Of a stretch of DNA of 64,000 bases, positions 7,058-28,116 are shown one piece after another. The notes beneath the pieces are model-generated. The model was given only the letters and a program-made list of their open reading frames with translations. It was not told the origin of the DNA and did no database searches. The translations under genes were made by a program, and so were the position numbers. Source of the stretch: an uncultured Olsenella sp. (lineage in GTDB: Bacteria > Actinomycetota > Coriobacteriia > Coriobacteriales > Atopobiaceae). Numbering within the stretch: position 1 is the stretch's first letter; each line of letters starts with the position of its first letter. Location: contig UQIF01000001.1 of NCBI GenBank assembly GCA_900540955.1, positions 105,439 to 169,438 of the forward strand. The letters are read 5' to 3'.

Positions 7058-8137
7058 CTACTCGTCGCCGAAGCTGATGCCGAGCAGCTTGGCCTCGCGG
7101 ACGAGGTCGCACTCGGGGTCGACGTACTTGAGCTTGCCCGCCACCTCCTCGAGCGGGACGCGGCGCATCTGGTCGTCGACCTTGGCGATCATGACGCCGT
7201 ATGCGCCCTCCAGGCAGGCGCGCGCCGCCTCGACGCCGCACTGCGTGGCGAAGATTCGGTCCTGGGCGTCGGGCTGCCCGCCGCGCTGGGTATGGCCGGG
7301 CACCGCCACGCGGATCTCGCGGCCGGTGCGGGAGGCGATCTCCTCGGCGATGTCGTAGGCGACCGATGGCTTCACGCGGGCGGCGACCTTTGCCTTGTAG
7401 TCCTTCTTCTTCATCGCCGCCTCCTCGCGGGAGATGGCGCCCTCTGCCACGACCACGATCGCAAAGCGGCCGCCGTCCTTCTCTCGCTTCTCGATGGCGT
7501 TCACGACGTTGTCCATGTCGTAGGGGATCTCGGGGATGAGGATGACGTCCGCGCCGCCGGCGACGCCCGCGTACAGCGGGATCCAACCGACCTTGTGGCC
7601 CATGATCTCGATGACGAAGACGCGGCCGTGCGAGCTCGCCGTCGTGTGGATGTCGTCGATGCAGCGGGTGGCGACGTCGATGGCCGAGGTGAAGCCGAAG
7701 GTCATGTCGGTGCCGTAGGTGTCGTTGTCGATGGTCTTGGGCAGGGCGATGACGTTCAGCCCCTCCTCGCGCAGGCGGTTTGCGGTCTTGGTCGAGCCGT
7801 TGCCGCCGAGCATAAAGAGGCAGTCGAGCTTGAGCTTCTTGTACGTGGCGACCATCGCCGGGACCTTCTTGACGCCGTCGGCCTCGGGCGTGTCGAGCAG
7901 CTTGAACGGCGTGCGCGAGGTGCCCAGGATGGTGCCGCCCTTGGTGAGGATGCCCGAGAAGTCGCCCCAGCTCATCTTGCGGTAGCGGCCGTAGATCATG
8001 CCCTGGTAGCCGTCCTCGAAGCCGTAGATCTCGACCTTCTCCTTGGAGTTATTGAGCACGGTCTTGACGATGCCGCGCATGGTCGCGTTGAGCGCCTGGC
8101 AGTCGCCGCCGGAGGTGAGCAGGCCGATTCGAAGCAT
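7058..8137 (-). CDS. pfkA: ATP-dependent 6-phosphofructokinase
   Basis: Start MLRIGLLTSGGDCQALNA with RBS GAGAGGAG. Motifs GGNGS, IPKTIDND, MGHKVG and PGHTQRGG. The longer ORF (to 8221) reads through the element's inverted repeat and was rejected. Confidence 0.9.
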   Translation of the reverse strand: MLRIGLLTSGGDCQALNATMRGIVKTVLNNSKEKVEIYGFEDGYQGMIYGRYRKMSWGDFSGILTKGGTILGTSRTPFKLLDTPEADGVKKVPAMVATYKKLKLDCLFMLGGNGSTKTANRLREEGLNVIALPKTIDNDTYGTDMTFGFTSAIDVATRCIDDIHTTASSHGRVFVIEIMGHKVGWIPLYAGVAGGADVILIPEIPYDMDNVVNAIEKREKDGGRFAIVVVAEGAISREEAAMKKKDYKAKVAARVKPSVAYDIAEEIASRTGREIRVAVPGHTQRGGQPDAQDRIFATQCGVEAARACLEGAYGVMIAKVDDQMRRVPLEEVAGKLKYVDPECDLVREAKLLGISFGDE

Positions 8138-8152
8138 GGTGGCTCCTCTCGT

Positions 8153-8185
8153 TTTGGGACAAAAGGGACGGGGGATTTTGTCCCA
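8153..8185. repeat. left terminal hairpin/inverted repeat of RAYT element
   Basis: 33-nt palindromic repeat that is the reverse complement of the 9038-9070 copy. Confidence 0.75.
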
Positions 8186-8288
8186 TTTTTTGGTTTTAAT
8201 CCGCAGTTTAGAGTAATCCAAAACAGGCCGTATAGAGGCGTCGCGCGACGGGTAAAGTGCCGCCTACAATCGGCGAGAGGGGGAGGGC

Positions 8289-9032
8289 ATGGTCAGGATC
8301 GCGAGGAAGGTCTCGGGCTCGGGGATTTACCACGTTGTCATGCGCGGGGCGGGGCGGCAGCTGCTGTTCGAGGACGACCGCGACAGGAGGCGGTTCCTTG
8401 AGCTTATGCACGAGTCGTTTACAGACCACGGGGTTAAGCTGCTGTGCTTCTGCCTCATGCCGAACCATGTTCACCTGATCGCCCGGGGCGAGCTTGCGGC
8501 ACTCAGCGCGGCCATGCATCTTCTGGGGACCAGGTACGCGCTCAGGTTCAACAAGAAGTCCGACCATTGCGGGCCCGTCTTCGAGGACCGCTTCTACAGC
8601 GACCCGATCGAGACCGACGCGCACTTCCTCGCCGCGCTCCGCTACGTTCTCATGAACCCCGAGCACGCGGGGATCTGCCCGGCGAGCGAGTATGCCTGGA
8701 GCTCGTACTCGGAATACGATGGCGAGGCTGCGTACTGCGACGCCTCGCTCGTGTCCGAACTTTTGGGGGACGGCTCGTCTGTTCAGGCGCTCGTTGCTGG
8801 CGGCGCCGACGCTTGCTACCGGTTCGAGGGCAAGAAGGGCATGGACGACCTCGAGGCGATCGGCTTCGCCCGCGAGGTCATCGGGCGCATGGGCATCGGC
8901 CTCGGGGAAATCAAGACGCTGCCCAGGCTCAGAAGGTCCGAGGCGCTTCGCGAGCTGAAGTCAGCGGGGCTGTCCACGCGCCAGATAGAGAGGCTGACGG
9001 GCATCGGGAGGAGTACCATTGCGAGGGCATGA
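8289..9032 (+). CDS. HuH Y1 tyrosine transposase (IS200-like / REP-associated tyrosine transposase family) with C-terminal HTH
   Basis: 247 aa. HuH motif CLMPNHVHLIA. Y-motif LRYVLMNPEHAGIC, resembling the RAYT Y..NPVRAGLV motif. C-terminal LSTRQIERLTGIGRSTIARA helix-turn-helix. Confidence 0.75.
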   Translation: MVRIARKVSGSGIYHVVMRGAGRQLLFEDDRDRRRFLELMHESFTDHGVKLLCFCLMPNHVHLIARGELAALSAAMHLLGTRYALRFNKKSDHCGPVFEDRFYSDPIETDAHFLAALRYVLMNPEHAGICPASEYAWSSYSEYDGEAAYCDASLVSELLGDGSSVQALVAGGADACYRFEGKKGMDDLEAIGFAREVIGRMGIGLGEIKTLPRLRRSEALRELKSAGLSTRQIERLTGIGRSTIARA

Positions 9033-9035
9033 CGG

Positions 9036-9070
9036 TTTGGGACAAAATCCCCCGTCCCTTTTGTCCCAAA
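9036..9070. repeat. right terminal hairpin/inverted repeat of RAYT element
   Basis: Reverse complement of 8153-8185. Confidence 0.75.
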
Positions 9071-9086
9071 TTGAGGAGGAGAAGTG

Positions 9087-9509
9087 ATGTACGACCGGCT
9101 ACGCGAGATCGACGAGGCCATCGCCGCCGGCAGGGAGGCGCTCGAGGCGCTCGAGGACGCCGCCGACTCGCTCGACTCGGCGAAGCGCTGGGGAATCGTG
9201 GACATTCTCGGCGGCGGGCTCATCACAAGCGTGATCAAGCACTCGCGCCTGGGCGACGCCAACCACGCACTTGCCGACGCCCGCGTGGCCCTCGCGCGCT
9301 TCTCGGCGGAGCTCGACGACGTGCGCGGCGTGGCAGGGCTCACGGCCGAGGTCAACCGCTGGAACGCCTTCTTCGACATCGCCTGCGACAACTGGCTCGC
9401 CGACATCTTCGTGCAAAAGGAGATGAGCGACGCGGCCGACAGGGTTGACGAAGCCATTGAGACCGTCAAGCGTGCCGTGCGTCGACTCGAGTACGCCCGC
9501 TGCGCATGA
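9087..9509 (+). CDS. hypothetical protein (coiled-coil-rich, acidic)
   Basis: 141 aa with RBS GAGGAGGAG immediately after the right IR. No recognisable domain. Confidence 0.5.
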   Translation: MYDRLREIDEAIAAGREALEALEDAADSLDSAKRWGIVDILGGGLITSVIKHSRLGDANHALADARVALARFSAELDDVRGVAGLTAEVNRWNAFFDIACDNWLADIFVQKEMSDAADRVDEAIETVKRAVRRLEYARCA

Positions 9510-9565
9510 GCGCCCTGGTTGCGCTATCTTCTTCACATCGTGTTACCGAGCGGAGGGGGCGCCCA

Positions 9566-10873
9566 ATGGGCAACGACAACGACATTCTTCACGCGTCGCG
9601 CGAGCAGATCGACCAGATCCAGCTCGCCGGGATACAGAAGACCGTCATCGACGTGTACGAGCACATCCCGTTCTACAAGAAGAGCTTCGACGAGGCCGGG
9701 TTCGACCCGTACTCGGTCAAGTCGCTCGACGACGTCGCTCGCATCCCCTTCGTGCAGAAGCAGGACCTGCGCGACGCCTATCCGTACGGCATGCTCGCCG
9801 TGCCGCTCAAGGACGTCCGCGAGATCCACATGTCTTCGGGCACGACCGGTATCGCGACCATGGGCGCCTACACCGAGCACGACATAAAGATCTGGGGCGA
9901 GTGCTTCTCGCGCGCCGTCGACTACGCCCACGGCGACGAGAACGACGTCATGCAGATCTGCTACGGCTACGGCCTCTTTACCGGCGGCCTCGGCGCTCAC
10001 TACGGCAGCATCTCCGCCGGCTGCGCCACCATCCCCATCAGCGCCGGCAACACCGAGCGCCAAATCCGCATCCTGCGCGAGATGGGCCCCACCATCCTGG
10101 CCTGCACCCCCTCCTACGCGATGCACATCGCCGACACCGCGATCGAGATGGGCCTCGACCCGGCACGCGACTTCAACCTGCGCGCCGGCATCCACGGCGC
10201 CGAGCCCTTCTCGGACAATTTTCGCCGCGACCTCGAGCGCAAGCTCGGCTACCGCGTGCTCGACATTTACGGCCTCACCGAGACCATGGGCCCGGGCGTG
10301 GCCATCGAGTGCTGGGAGCAGCAGGGCCTCCACATCGCCGAGGACCACTTCTACCCCGAGATCATCAACCCCGAGACGGGCGAGGTCCTTCCCGACGGCG
10401 AGTGGGGCGAGCTCGTCATCACCACGCTCGACCGCGAGGCGTCTCCCGTCGTGCGCTACCGCACGCGCGACATCACCCGCATCATTCCCGGCGAGTGCCC
10501 CTGCGGCCGCACGCACCGCCGCATCGACCGCATCCACGGCCGCACCGACGACATGCTCATCATCCGCGGCGTCAACGTCTTCCCGAGCCAGATCGAGGAC
10601 GTTATGAAGACGTTCCCCGAGATGTCCTCCTGGTACCAGATCGAGGTCGACACCGACCACCGCTCCCTCGACATCGTCACCCTCAAGGCCGAGCCGAACC
10701 CCGACGTGGACCTCGACTCCATCGCCGACATCGATCGCCTGCAGAAGCGGATCAGCGCCGCGCTCAAGGCCGCGCTCTCGGTCGGCGTCAAGGTCAAGCT
10801 CGTGGAGCCCAAGAGCATCCCGCGCAGCGAGGGCAAGGCCAAGCGCATCGTCGACCTCAGGAAGGAGCTCTAA
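9566..10873 (+). CDS. paaK: phenylacetate-CoA ligase family (PaaK-like adenylate-forming enzyme)
   Basis: Start MGNDNDILHASREQIDQIQLAGIQKT with RBS GGAGGGGG. Motifs SSGTTG, YGLTE and a PaaK-type C-terminal domain. Confidence 0.85.
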   Translation: MGNDNDILHASREQIDQIQLAGIQKTVIDVYEHIPFYKKSFDEAGFDPYSVKSLDDVARIPFVQKQDLRDAYPYGMLAVPLKDVREIHMSSGTTGIATMGAYTEHDIKIWGECFSRAVDYAHGDENDVMQICYGYGLFTGGLGAHYGSISAGCATIPISAGNTERQIRILREMGPTILACTPSYAMHIADTAIEMGLDPARDFNLRAGIHGAEPFSDNFRRDLERKLGYRVLDIYGLTETMGPGVAIECWEQQGLHIAEDHFYPEIINPETGEVLPDGEWGELVITTLDREASPVVRYRTRDITRIIPGECPCGRTHRRIDRIHGRTDDMLIIRGVNVFPSQIEDVMKTFPEMSSWYQIEVDTDHRSLDIVTLKAEPNPDVDLDSIADIDRLQKRISAALKAALSVGVKVKLVEPKSIPRSEGKAKRIVDLRKEL

Positions 10874-22542: not shown

Positions 22543-22674
22543 GACGCCTCCCGATTTGTCAGCAGCTGTGCCTGAGTCTACGCCTTATCCGCGCTTCGCC
22601 CGTCTAAGGTGGCCACAGTGTTTCATCTCCGTGTTCTGGGTTGAGCCACGCTGCTGGCGGTGTTAGGGTTTTTC

Positions 22675-22850
22675 TCATCGATAGAGGAGCGGGCACGAAG
22701 AAGCCCGGGGGAGCCGGCAGGCGCAAGAACCCCGAGCGGAGGCGAGGCTCGCCGAACTGTACTCGTCGGGCACGGCGATGCGGTGGGCCTGCGGGAAATA
22801 CCCCCAGGACTGTCTGCGACAATACGTCGCGGGAGCGCTATCACATGGGA
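22675..22850 (+). ncRNA. candidate lysine riboswitch (L-box) in lysA leader
   Basis: ~360-nt 5' UTR. Segments AGAGGAGCGGGC..., GCCGAAC, GGGAAAUACCCCCAGGACUGUC and GGGAGCGCUAUC resemble L-box conserved blocks (AGAGGNGC, GCCGAAG, CUGUCA, GGAGAGCGCUAUC-like). Read by eye only. Confidence 0.4.
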
Positions 22851-26735: not shown

Positions 26736-26769
26736 TATAAACGTTATATAAACGTAATATAAACGTTTT
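26736..26769. repeat. triple direct repeat TATAAACGT (candidate operator)
   Basis: tataaacgt-ta-tataaacgt-aa-tataaacgt-ttt, an AT-rich island in GC-rich DNA ~70 nt upstream of the Fe-ADH start. Each unit contains the palindrome AACGTT. Confidence 0.55.
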
Positions 26770-26793
26770 GCGCTGGGTAAAATATCCTCCGTG

Positions 26794-26818
26794 GGCCGAC
26801 AGCGGGTCGGCCTTTTTT
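26794..26818 (+). terminator. hairpin + T-tract (terminator/attenuator) immediately upstream of ADH RBS
   Basis: GGCCGAC-agcgg-GTCGGCC followed by TTTTTT. Confidence 0.45.
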
Positions 26819-26839
26819 CCGAGCAACGGAGGAATCGGC

Positions 26840-28006
26840 ATGGCTAATCGTTTTGTCCTCAACACCGTCAGCTATCACGGTAAGGGCGCCATCAAGGAGA
26901 TCCCGGGCGAGATTACCCGTCGCGGCTACAAGAAGGTCTTCGTCTGTTCCGACCCCGACCTCGTCAAGTTCGGCGTGACCTCCAAGGTCACCGACGAGCT
27001 CGACGCCGCCGGCATCGCCTGGTCCCTCTACTCCGAGATCAAGCCCAACCCCACCATCAAGAACGTTCAGGACGGCGTCGAGGCGTTCAAGGCGGCCGAG
27101 GCCGACTGCATCGTGACCATCGGCGGCGGCTCCTCCATGGACACCGCCAAGGCCATCGGCATCATCATCGAGAACCCCGAGTTCGCCGACGTGCGTTCCC
27201 TCGAGGGCGTCGCCCCCACCAAGAACCACGCGGTCTTCACCATCGCCGTGCCCACCACCGCCGGCACCGCTGCCGAGGTCACTATTAACTACGTGATCAC
27301 CGACCCCGAGAAGGTCCGCAAGTTCGTCTGCGTCGACACCAACGACATCCCCGAGGTCGCCGTCGTCGACCCTGACATGATGGCCTCCATGCCCGCCGGC
27401 CTCACCGCCGCCACCGGCATGGACGCGCTCACCCACGCCATCGAGGGCTACACCACCAAGGGCGCCTGGGAGCTCTCCGACATGTTCCACTTCAAGGCCA
27501 TCGAGCTCATCTCCAAGAACCTCCGCGACTCCGTCGCCGAGGCGAAGAGCGGCGTTCCGGCCTCCGGCCGCGAGGGCATGGCGCTCGGCCAGTACATCGC
27601 CGGCATGGGCTTCTCCAACGTCGGCCTCGGCATCGACCACGCCATGGCCCACACGCTTTCCGCCCACTACGACACCCCGCACGGCGTCGCTTGCGCCATG
27701 CTGCTCCCGATTGCGATGGAGTTCAACAAGCCCGTCGTGACCAAGCGTCTGGCTGAGGTCGCCGTCGCCATGGGCGTCGACACCACCGGCATGAGCGAGG
27801 ACGAGGCTGCCGACGCCGCCATCGCCGCCGTCAAGCAGCTCTCCGAAGACGTGCAGATCCCGCACGTCTGCGAGGCCATGAAGGCCGACGAGATCGAGGT
27901 CCTGGCCAAGGACGCCATGGCCGACGCCTGCTTCCCGGGCAACCCGCGCGAGGCCACGCTCGACGACGTCATCGAGCTCTTCAAGAAGATCTGCCCCTCC
28001 GCGTAG
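26840..28006 (+). CDS. iron-containing alcohol dehydrogenase (FucO/lactaldehyde reductase-like)
   Basis: MANRFVLNTVSYHGKGAIKEIPG. Motifs GGGSSMDTAKA and the His cluster GLGIDHAMAHTLSAHYDTPHGVACAML. Confidence 0.85.
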   Translation: MANRFVLNTVSYHGKGAIKEIPGEITRRGYKKVFVCSDPDLVKFGVTSKVTDELDAAGIAWSLYSEIKPNPTIKNVQDGVEAFKAAEADCIVTIGGGSSMDTAKAIGIIIENPEFADVRSLEGVAPTKNHAVFTIAVPTTAGTAAEVTINYVITDPEKVRKFVCVDTNDIPEVAVVDPDMMASMPAGLTAATGMDALTHAIEGYTTKGAWELSDMFHFKAIELISKNLRDSVAEAKSGVPASGREGMALGQYIAGMGFSNVGLGIDHAMAHTLSAHYDTPHGVACAMLLPIAMEFNKPVVTKRLAEVAVAMGVDTTGMSEDEAADAAIAAVKQLSEDVQIPHVCEAMKADEIEVLAKDAMADACFPGNPREATLDDVIELFKKICPSA

Positions 28007-28116
28007 CCTGGCGTGAACAGCGTGAACAGGGGACGTACCCTGTTCACGCGTCCCCTGTTCACGTTCACGCGAAGAGGTGGCATCTTGCTCGCCGACTTGG
28101 CACAATAGACTGGCGT

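Follow-up and report, generated by a model that had tools for sequence, protein, structure and literature searches.

A RAYT-like tyrosine transposase gene between inverted hairpins at the pfkA locus of an uncultured Olsenella sp.

A stretch of 64,000 nucleotides (nt) from an uncultured Olsenella sp. (contig UQIF01000001.1, positions 105,439 to 169,438; hereafter the window, to which all plain coordinates refer) carries, between pfkA and the gene of a hypothetical protein of 140 amino acids (aa), a RAYT-like Y1 HuH tyrosine transposase gene that is bracketed by two inverted copies of a hairpin. This unit is very probably a TIRtron, that is, a single-copy, vertically inherited, domesticated Y1 HuH nuclease/transposase gene lying between inverted copies of its likely cognate hairpin. 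The initial annotation, made from the letters of the DNA and their open reading frames (ORFs), had described a REPtron-like unit with a RAYT-type HuH Y1 enzyme rather than a classic insertion sequence (IS). That description holds, since fold and profile place the enzyme nearer to Escherichia coli TnpA-REP, the gene occupies a single-copy locus, and the hairpin forms dispersed doublets elsewhere. The loci and contigs compared with the window are designated by L numbers.

A Y1 HuH enzyme with a conserved C-terminal tail

The 247-aa ORF matches the Pfam domain Y1_Tnp (PF01797) with an E value of 1.4e-11 (45 bits, cutoff 23). The HuH motif and the RAYT-like Y motif, both recognized in the initial annotation, are borne out by a family alignment of 36 members sharing 39-94% identity, in which H60, H62, Y119, N123, and P124 (Y119-x3-N123-P124) are invariant. 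So are W137 and S139, around which a W-S-S motif is nearly invariant. In a search of solved structures with an alignment-built profile, the top match was E. coli TnpA-REP (4er8, E=0.0016), and ISDra2 TnpA followed with E=0.04. Consistently, Foldseek with an AlphaFold (AF2) model of the transposase (pLDDT 88) found 4er8 as the best match (E=3.7e-7, target-normalised TM-score 0.80), while the IS608/IS200 TnpA proteins were matched at ~3e-4. By fold and by family profile, the protein is closer to E. coli TnpA-REP, with which it shares ~13% sequence identity, than to IS200 TnpA.

The extra C-terminal helix-turn-helix (HTH) that had been proposed corresponds to a tail that is both conserved and confidently predicted to be helical. 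In the AF2 model, the last ~60 residues form a small helical bundle with predicted helices at 213-225, 230-237, and 241-246 (pLDDT about 90), and the 36-member alignment shows the consensus GLSxRQIERLTGIGRxxIxRA, in which R216, L223, Q232, R235, T237, and G238 are invariant. Matches of the tail to Pfam HTH_7, HTH_23, HTH_28, and HTH_3 all remained under the gathering cutoffs. Foldseek with the C-terminal domain alone returned nothing below E=2, the top matches being HTH domains of ParB/Spo0J, KorB, and TrpR, and a PDB profile search with the same domain gave weak or spurious matches only (protein A repeats, GcrA, Spo0J). In the model, the tail looks like an HTH, for which DnaA-C/TrpR-like and resolvase-like types are both candidates.

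Covarying hairpins around the gene and dispersed elsewhere

The two hairpin repeats are exact reverse complements of each other, and a repeat search extends their arms to 38 nt at 95% identity (8148-8185 and 9038-9075). The initial annotation had reported the exact match correctly and had set the right-hand copy 2 nt too wide, at 9036-9070 instead of 9038-9070. Each repeat is itself a hairpin, as had been stated, with a stem of 10-13 bp and an 11-nt loop; the predicted DNA folds range from -8.8 kcal/mol, for the left hairpin, to -11 kcal/mol (z = -1.8 to -2.8). Exactly two instances of the 31-nt core were found in the window, with 0 expected (100 shuffles), and searches of the window with the bare stem word and with a relaxed stem-loop pattern gave no further site. 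The peptide WDKIPRPFCPK, which had been noticed in two ORFs, is present in both, trivially because an inverted repeat is translated twice. An Rfam search of the whole unit (E<=1) gave no match.

The same layout recurs in the family, as seen in a homolog set of 80 loci from a metagenome scan. Homologs that are 30-49% identical share a hairpin with a GGGAC(G/A)G loop upstream of the gene and its inverse just past the stop codon, and at most full-length homolog loci the gene is flanked by inverted repeats of 12-33 nt with GGGAC(G/A)G in common. Across 42 loci, the GGGAC-type motif prefers the plus orientation upstream (46 versus 7) and the minus orientation downstream (37 versus 14). Upstream copies typically lie 60-125 nt before the ATG, with the coding strand bearing the G-rich motif, and downstream copies typically lie 13-45 nt past the stop codon, with the motif on the other strand. 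The motif sits in the loop, while the stem sequence varies by lineage (TGGGACAAAA, GAAGTCAGCG, AAGACGAG, GAGACAG, ATTGTGCAATTT).

Pairing, in turn, is maintained. The stems average 6.9 Watson-Crick pairs, compared with 4.1 when the 3' flanks are swapped between loci, and none of 300 permutations reached 6.9. Of the cells in an anchored 17-locus alignment, 75% are paired, against 50% in shuffles and 36-49% in slid registers. All 10 pairs of this alignment show double changes, with 52 double-change cells against 17, a count that was equaled in none of 500 shuffles. The stems covary across the family. A covariance model (R1) built from the 17-locus alignment scores the left hairpin of the window at 30.8 bits and the right one, on the minus strand, at 29.9 bits. 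It also detects further copies, at distances above 500 nt from the gene, in L121, L124, L132, L141, L157, and L168, and it has no match in the gene-less relatives L202, L204, and L208. At some homolog loci, GGGGACGG units form tandem arrays, not singlets or doublets: L124:6858-7010 holds a run of at least four such units with a 28-nt period, and at L150:149-336 five hairpins stand immediately upstream of the gene.

It is hardly conceivable, given these data, that the palindromes arose by chance or are ordinary intrinsic terminators beside a degenerate transposase relic. Their AT-rich stems stand out against a GC content of 66%, both in the window and in the genome, and the left hairpin is followed by a T-run that earns a terminator-like score on the plus strand, as a terminator would. 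Such an origin would leave unexplained a 33-nt exact inverted match where none is expected, hairpins that are identical among sister lineages whereas the flanking spacer varies, and an ORF that is intact and constrained, as well as a layout and a loop motif that recur across the family with covarying stems.

The hairpin is also found far from the gene. Among the matches listed in a stem-only scan of representative genomes, most belong to a single orthologous locus in Collinsella, whose loop differs. The exact loop variant, an identical 31-mer, is present in at least 13 copies in the metagenome-assembled genome (MAG) CAKUIF01, spread over six 8-kb blocks from five contigs. This MAG is labeled “uncultured Olsenella sp.” and represents another genus, the window matching it only in the hairpins and in one coding stretch at 67%. 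The CAKUIF01 copies are all intergenic, several of them directly after stop codons, and are mostly arranged as inverted doublets. The spacer measures 34 nt in three doublets and 55 nt in one, and the 34-nt spacer contains a second, small palindrome, TGTGGAG..CTCCACA, which is imperfect in one doublet. These doublets display the classic pattern of repetitive extragenic palindromic (REP) sequences, BIMEs, and REPINs, and REPIN-like doublets are thus dispersed in the genome of at least one member of the Atopobiaceae. A sequence past the right hairpin of the window, AAATTGAGGAG, resembles the AAWTGTGGAG tail of the MAG doublets; we dismissed this similarity as probably due to chance or to a ribosome-binding site (RBS) because the orientation of the loop relative to the tail is opposite.

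Related stems and other palindromes were encountered as well. The Collinsella matches, comprising ~90 other loci (L002-L116) and L030:1923-1953, correspond to one orthologous intergenic hairpin between convergent genes, with an identical 10-bp stem (TGGGACAAAA/TTTTGTCCCA) and a different loop (TAGACTGAAAT). No RAYT-like gene is contained in the same 8-kb blocks, and Rfam gave no match for the hairpin, for which a fossil repeat and a terminator are candidate explanations. Four contigs of a Raoultibacter MAG, JAVBQH01 (Eggerthellaceae), carry the same stem (L044:6883, L060:3877, L073:5773, and L100:1738) with the varying loops GGGACAGACCT, GAGACTGTCCC, GGGACAGACCC, and GGGTTTGCCCC, which suggests a related dispersed family in another Coriobacteriia family. 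In the window itself, a unique palindrome at 28010-28070 (-26 kcal/mol as DNA) lies directly 3' of the stop codon of the ORF at 26768..28006 and consists of two inverted GTGAACAGGGGACG units. The one other covariance-model match in the window, at 28019-28050 (20.2 bits), was rejected as a hairpin copy, as this palindrome has a stem family different from that of the pfkA-locus hairpins. Possible identities of the palindrome are an orphan repeat that belongs to another RAYT-like system and a bidirectional terminator.

A fixed locus in the probable pfkA control region

The exact protein is present in 143 blocks of the collection, and every one of the 23 contigs read places the gene at the same locus, in the shared order MgtC-pfkA, transposase gene, 140-aa gene, AMP-binding, ACT. 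Homologs that are 89-95% identical occupy the same position between pfkA and the hypothetical gene; PfkA itself is 87% identical to that of Thermophilibacter immobilis and 86% identical to that of Tractidigestivibacter, which places the host in the Atopobiaceae. A dN/dS of 0.18-0.21 against two sister lineages points to purifying selection on the transposase gene. Full-length matches are nearly absent from mobile carriers, with 2 among the 72,556 plasmid records and 1 among the 50,697 phage records, and the window contains no second RAYT-like gene. Two aberrant forms were seen: a 200-aa truncated transposase occurs as P0134, and at L213:4001-4760, on a contig of 2.06 Mb from the same species group, two compensating frameshifts break the RAYT-like ORF, which reflects either long-read indel errors or a pseudogene.

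The initial annotation had proposed to compare the pfkA upstream region of related strains. Where a relative retains the gene, the repeats are retained too, so that the refuting condition named there, the same gene without repeats in all relatives, does not hold. The downstream copies vary in number: one hairpin follows the gene in the window and in L117, and two in tandem follow it in L118, L120, L211, L212, and L213. The second downstream copy (e.g., L118:3752-3826) has the loop TACCCCGTCCC, and L213 shows the opposite order. The comparison also revealed presence and absence of the unit. The gene is present in the sister lineages and absent from L202, in which PfkA is 93% identical, the right-hand neighbors are the same, and no gene lies between pfkA and the hypothetical gene. 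The 247-nt spacer of L202 aligns to window positions 8205-8280, including the blocks TAGAGTAATCCAA and CGGGTAAA..CTTACAA, and bears a degenerate palindrome, GGCAAACGAGACGGGGTTTCGCC, at the position of the left hairpin. Since the difference between the two loci does not end at the hairpins, a loss by deletion in L202, or a gain by a route other than cut-and-paste, is the more probable origin of the difference.

These comparisons bear on whether the 0.9-kb unit could be an autonomous IS200/IS605-type IS that moves whole by single-strand “peel and paste” and was inserted in the pfkA promoter region. The Y1_Tnp domain, the hairpins at both ends, and the presence or absence of the unit among close relatives fit such an element, as do, at first sight, the many homologs on contigs of ~900 bp, which look like a collapsed repeat. 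We rejected a multi-copy IS as the source of these short contigs. Since the ends of contig L120 fall in or near the hairpins, we ascribe such contigs to k=31 assemblies that break at the 31-nt inverted k-mers. Moreover, the hairpins are inverted and thus on opposite strands, whereas IS200/IS605 ends are on the same strand. The score for the NCBIfam equivalog transpos_IS200 (NF033573) is 16.6 bits and does not reach the cutoff of 55, the predicted fold is nearer to TnpA-REP, and gene-less L202 keeps sequence from inside the unit, so that it provides no precise empty site. Because the locus is single-copy and fixed, the gene is under purifying selection, and the L202 gap runs past the hairpins, a unit-mobile IS is very improbable, and a TIRtron with a resident gene remains our preferred reading.

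The hairpins lie 3-4 nt from the RBSs of pfkA and of the 140-aa gene, as read from the sequence and as initially stated; the RBS of the latter, GAGGAGG, begins 3 nt past the right hairpin, and the call of this gene is kept in L117, L118, and L202. It had also been claimed that both neighbors draw their promoters from inside or from the edges of the unit. For pfkA, this is supported to some extent by the 8205-8280 blocks, whose conservation in gene-less L202 suggests that part of the spacer serves pfkA, probably as its promoter. A strict sigma-70 promoter scan of 7900-9600 found none. Divergent promoters, one for the transposase gene and one for pfkA, are probably contained in the spacer between the left hairpin and the transposase gene. 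The left hairpin would then be placed in the 5' untranslated region of pfkA, probably so because the pfkA RBS follows 3-4 nt beyond it. The 140-aa gene probably either shares a transcript with the transposase gene or has a transcription start inside that gene. In another relative, at L204:3260-3480 (PfkA 90% identical, other neighbors), the pfkA upstream region is without a RAYT-like gene and has other GGGAC-bearing palindromes, e.g., AAAGGGACACCCCTGCC...GGCAGGGGTGTCCCTCTT.

Such proximity raises the alternative of a domesticated DNA-binding regulator with cis-regulatory hairpins, i.e., an HTH transcription factor, or RNA stem-loops or terminators, without any cleavage or hairpin mobility. Apart from the distances to both RBSs, the terminator-like score of the left hairpin with its T-run, the HTH tail of the protein, and the lack of dispersed copies in the window are in keeping with a regulator, and the covariation fits RNA structure equally well. 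We nevertheless consider a pure regulator unlikely. The catalytic HuH and Tyr residues are invariant over 39-94% identity, with the signature of purifying selection. The hairpins flank the gene whatever its neighbors (PTS EI/diacylglycerol kinase in L201, nifU/sufU in L214), and in another genus (CAKUIF01) an identical hairpin follows unrelated genes at dispersed sites. That the hairpins are oriented alike toward both neighbors is a trivial consequence of inverted-repeat symmetry, and this too counts against a regulator. The features of the unit and of its neighbors are collected in Table 1.

Table 1. Features of the TIRtron-like unit and its neighbors in the window
Feature	Coordinates	Strand	Remarks
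Left hairpin repeat	8153..8185	none	Exact reverse complement of 9038-9070; sequence TTTGGGACAAAAGGGACGGGGGATTTTGTCCCA; stem TGGGACAAAA/TTTTGTCCCA; plus-strand loop GGGACGGGGGA; inverted-repeat arm out to 8148
Spacer, left hairpin to transposase ATG	8186..8288		Contains block TAGAGTAATCCAA (~8210-8222) and block CGGGTAAA..CTACAA
RAYT-like Y1 HuH tyrosine transposase gene (TIRYT / RAYT Group 1 type)	8289..9032	+	247 aa, stop codon included
HuH motif codons H60-V61-H62 (in LMPNHVHL)	8466..8474	+	H60/H62 invariant; aligned to HMH of E. coli TnpA-REP
Y119 codon, presumed catalytic tyrosine (in RYVLMNP)	8643..8645	+	Aligned to YIYINP of 4er8
C-terminal HTH-like region, residues ~213-247	8925..9029	+	GLSTRQIERLTGIGRSTIARA; invariant residues and predicted helices
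Right hairpin repeat	9038..9070	none	Inverse of left copy; plus-strand loop TCCCCCGTCCC; stem spans 9036-9070; inverted-repeat arm out to 9075
pfkA (6-phosphofructokinase)	7058..8137	-	Pfam PFK, E=4.6e-101
140-aa hypothetical protein gene	9087..9509	+	Without Pfam or NCBIfam match

Elsewhere in the window, a lysine riboswitch aptamer lies at 22674-22848 on the plus strand (Rfam RF00168, 66.8 bits, E=3e-15).

Relation to known systems and proposed activity

RAYT-like genes flanked by terminal inverted repeats have been named TIRtrons, and their products TIRYTs (Di Nocera et al. 2013, PMC3733652). The motif GGGGWSAS is common to many TIRtron repeats. Some repeats are self-complementary, and some belong to moderately abundant families, in which they occur as dimers or clusters (PMC3733652). 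Of 26 TIRYTs, 20 fall into TnpA-Y1 subclass 2.1, the second-largest subclass (Quentin et al. 2018, PMC6006769), onto which the RAYT Group 1 of Bertels was mapped; the C termini of subclass 2.1 are Bac_DnaA_C-, HTH_23-, or HTH_28-like, and no REP-like secondary structures were reported near its genes (PMC6006769). RAYT Group 1 is the largest and most widely distributed group, and its flanking 16-mers are moderately repeated, with ~12 occurrences per replicon (Bertels et al. 2017, PMC5581495).

With TIRYTs and TIRtrons the unit shares a RAYT-like Y1 gene that is longer than the classical ones, a C-terminal tail that may be an HTH of the HTH_23/HTH_28 type, and flanking inverted repeats at characteristic distances. 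In both, the genes are mostly single-copy and chromosomal, and the repeats are sometimes moderately abundant and arranged in dimers or clusters. Relative to GGGGWSAS, the window sequence AGGGACGG agrees in 6 of 8 positions, the GGGGACGG of most homologs in 7 of 8, and the GGGGACAG of some in all 8. Three features differ: the motif is (A/G)GGGACGG, which agrees with the consensus in 6-7 of 8 positions; the host belongs to the gut Atopobiaceae (Actinomycetota); and, compared with subclass 2.1 as published, there is here a true stem-loop with the motif in the loop and covarying stems. The initial remark that such systems are rarely annotated in high-GC Gram-positive anaerobes overstates the novelty, given that the layout already has a name and that the family numbers 7,505 clusters (50% identity, E<=1e-30). 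The unit is real but ordinary, being a member of a large class already described, and what is modestly new is the presence of structured REP-like hairpins as its repeats.

Other Y1 systems are more distant. The E. coli REPtron (TnpA-REP, yafM; 4er8 with REP/BIME) resembles the unit in its HuH and Y---NP chemistry, in an immobile single-copy gene bracketed by inverted hairpins, and in inverted doublets after stop codons like those of CAKUIF01. The unit differs from it by an extra linker and HTH of ~100 aa and by conserved bases that lie in the 11-nt loop, with no GTAG at the foot of the stem. The inverted doublets of CAKUIF01 (A-34 nt-B), in which the short spacer is partly palindromic, resemble the REPINs of Pseudomonas (Bertels & Rainey 2011, PMC3116915), whose REPIN-RAYT system likewise has a single-copy, vertically inherited transposase that is occasionally lost; the transposase is Group 1-like here and belongs to Groups 2/3 there. 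The Y1 HuH fold and, probably, DNA hairpin recognition link the unit to the IS200/IS605 family (IS608 and ISDra2 TnpA), whose members have differing ends on one strand, are multi-copy and unit-mobile, and often carry tnpB. In contrast, the unit has identical inverted hairpins, a single locus, and no tnpB.

Several points weigh against the TIRtron reading. The unit matches the TIRYT/TIRtron class (RAYT Group 1, subclass 2.1) by its features, not by clustering with the published sequences. Of the two profile searches proposed in the initial annotation, the one against Y1_Tnp was significant, but the RAYT profile, NF047646 REP_Tyr_transpos, which was the best NCBIfam match, scored 57.7 bits, under its cutoff of 80. 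A GTAG tag adjoining the hairpins, a classical REP feature, is absent at both copies, and about one-quarter of the homolog loci are without clean hairpin flanks, e.g., L129/L130 and L214 (Collinsella aerofaciens). Word and covariance-model searches found no further hairpin copy in the window, and none beyond the flanking ones was found in the 6-9 kb around the gene on seven related contigs; set against the hundreds of host copies of the E. coli REPtron, there are two flanking copies in the 64 kb read. No homolog of the transposase was detected by tblastn in any of the 116 hairpin-bearing blocks, and because the sampled CAKUIF01 blocks contain no RAYT homolog, the link between protein and hairpin rests on their family-wide co-location. 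Finally, we infer binding, cleavage, and the roles of the loop motif and of the HTH by analogy.

By analogy with TnpA-REP and IS608 TnpA, the protein would bind the hairpin when it is extruded from single-stranded DNA, e.g., on the lagging-strand template. The conserved GGGAC(G/A)G loop would probably be read by the protein as the specificity determinant, and the C-terminal HTH might add DNA contacts, maybe to double-stranded DNA or to the stem. As in these two enzymes, DNA would be cut and rejoined via Y119, with a metal ion held by the HuH histidines. With the flanking hairpins on opposite strands, an IS200-type excision as a single-strand circle would not take place, so that the gene would stay put. 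The spreading units would instead be free hairpins or doublets, which seem to have already spread in the “Olsenella” MAG CAKUIF01, whereas at the window locus only the number of downstream hairpins varies. As a side effect, the pfkA promoter would seem to be enclosed by the unit; the right hairpin is located just ahead of the RBS of the next gene.

A broader proposal is more tentative, and we hold it to be possible without favoring it: the terminal repeats of TIRYT/Group 1 genes could be a clade-wide ligand in the form of single-stranded DNA or RNA, a covarying stem-loop with a GGGAC(G/A)G loop, and the Atopobiaceae could harbor a REP/REPIN population built from it. If true, this would contradict the published statement that subclass 2.1 has no REP-like secondary structures, and it would mean that Gram-positive Actinomycetota of the human gut possess a RAYT-REPIN system.

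For annotation, genes of this kind are better labeled as a RAYT-like (Group 1/TIRYT) domesticated tyrosine transposase than as the “transposase” of an active IS, and the hairpins should be recorded as repeats. The hairpin, with its conserved loop and covarying stem, offers a concrete oligonucleotide for the biochemistry of the largest and least understood RAYT clade, and the covariance model could be used to count such elements across gut Firmicutes and Coriobacteriia. At the window locus, the unit occupies what is probably the regulatory region of pfkA, a gene central to glycolysis, and close relatives with and without it constitute a natural test of its effect on the expression of neighboring genes.

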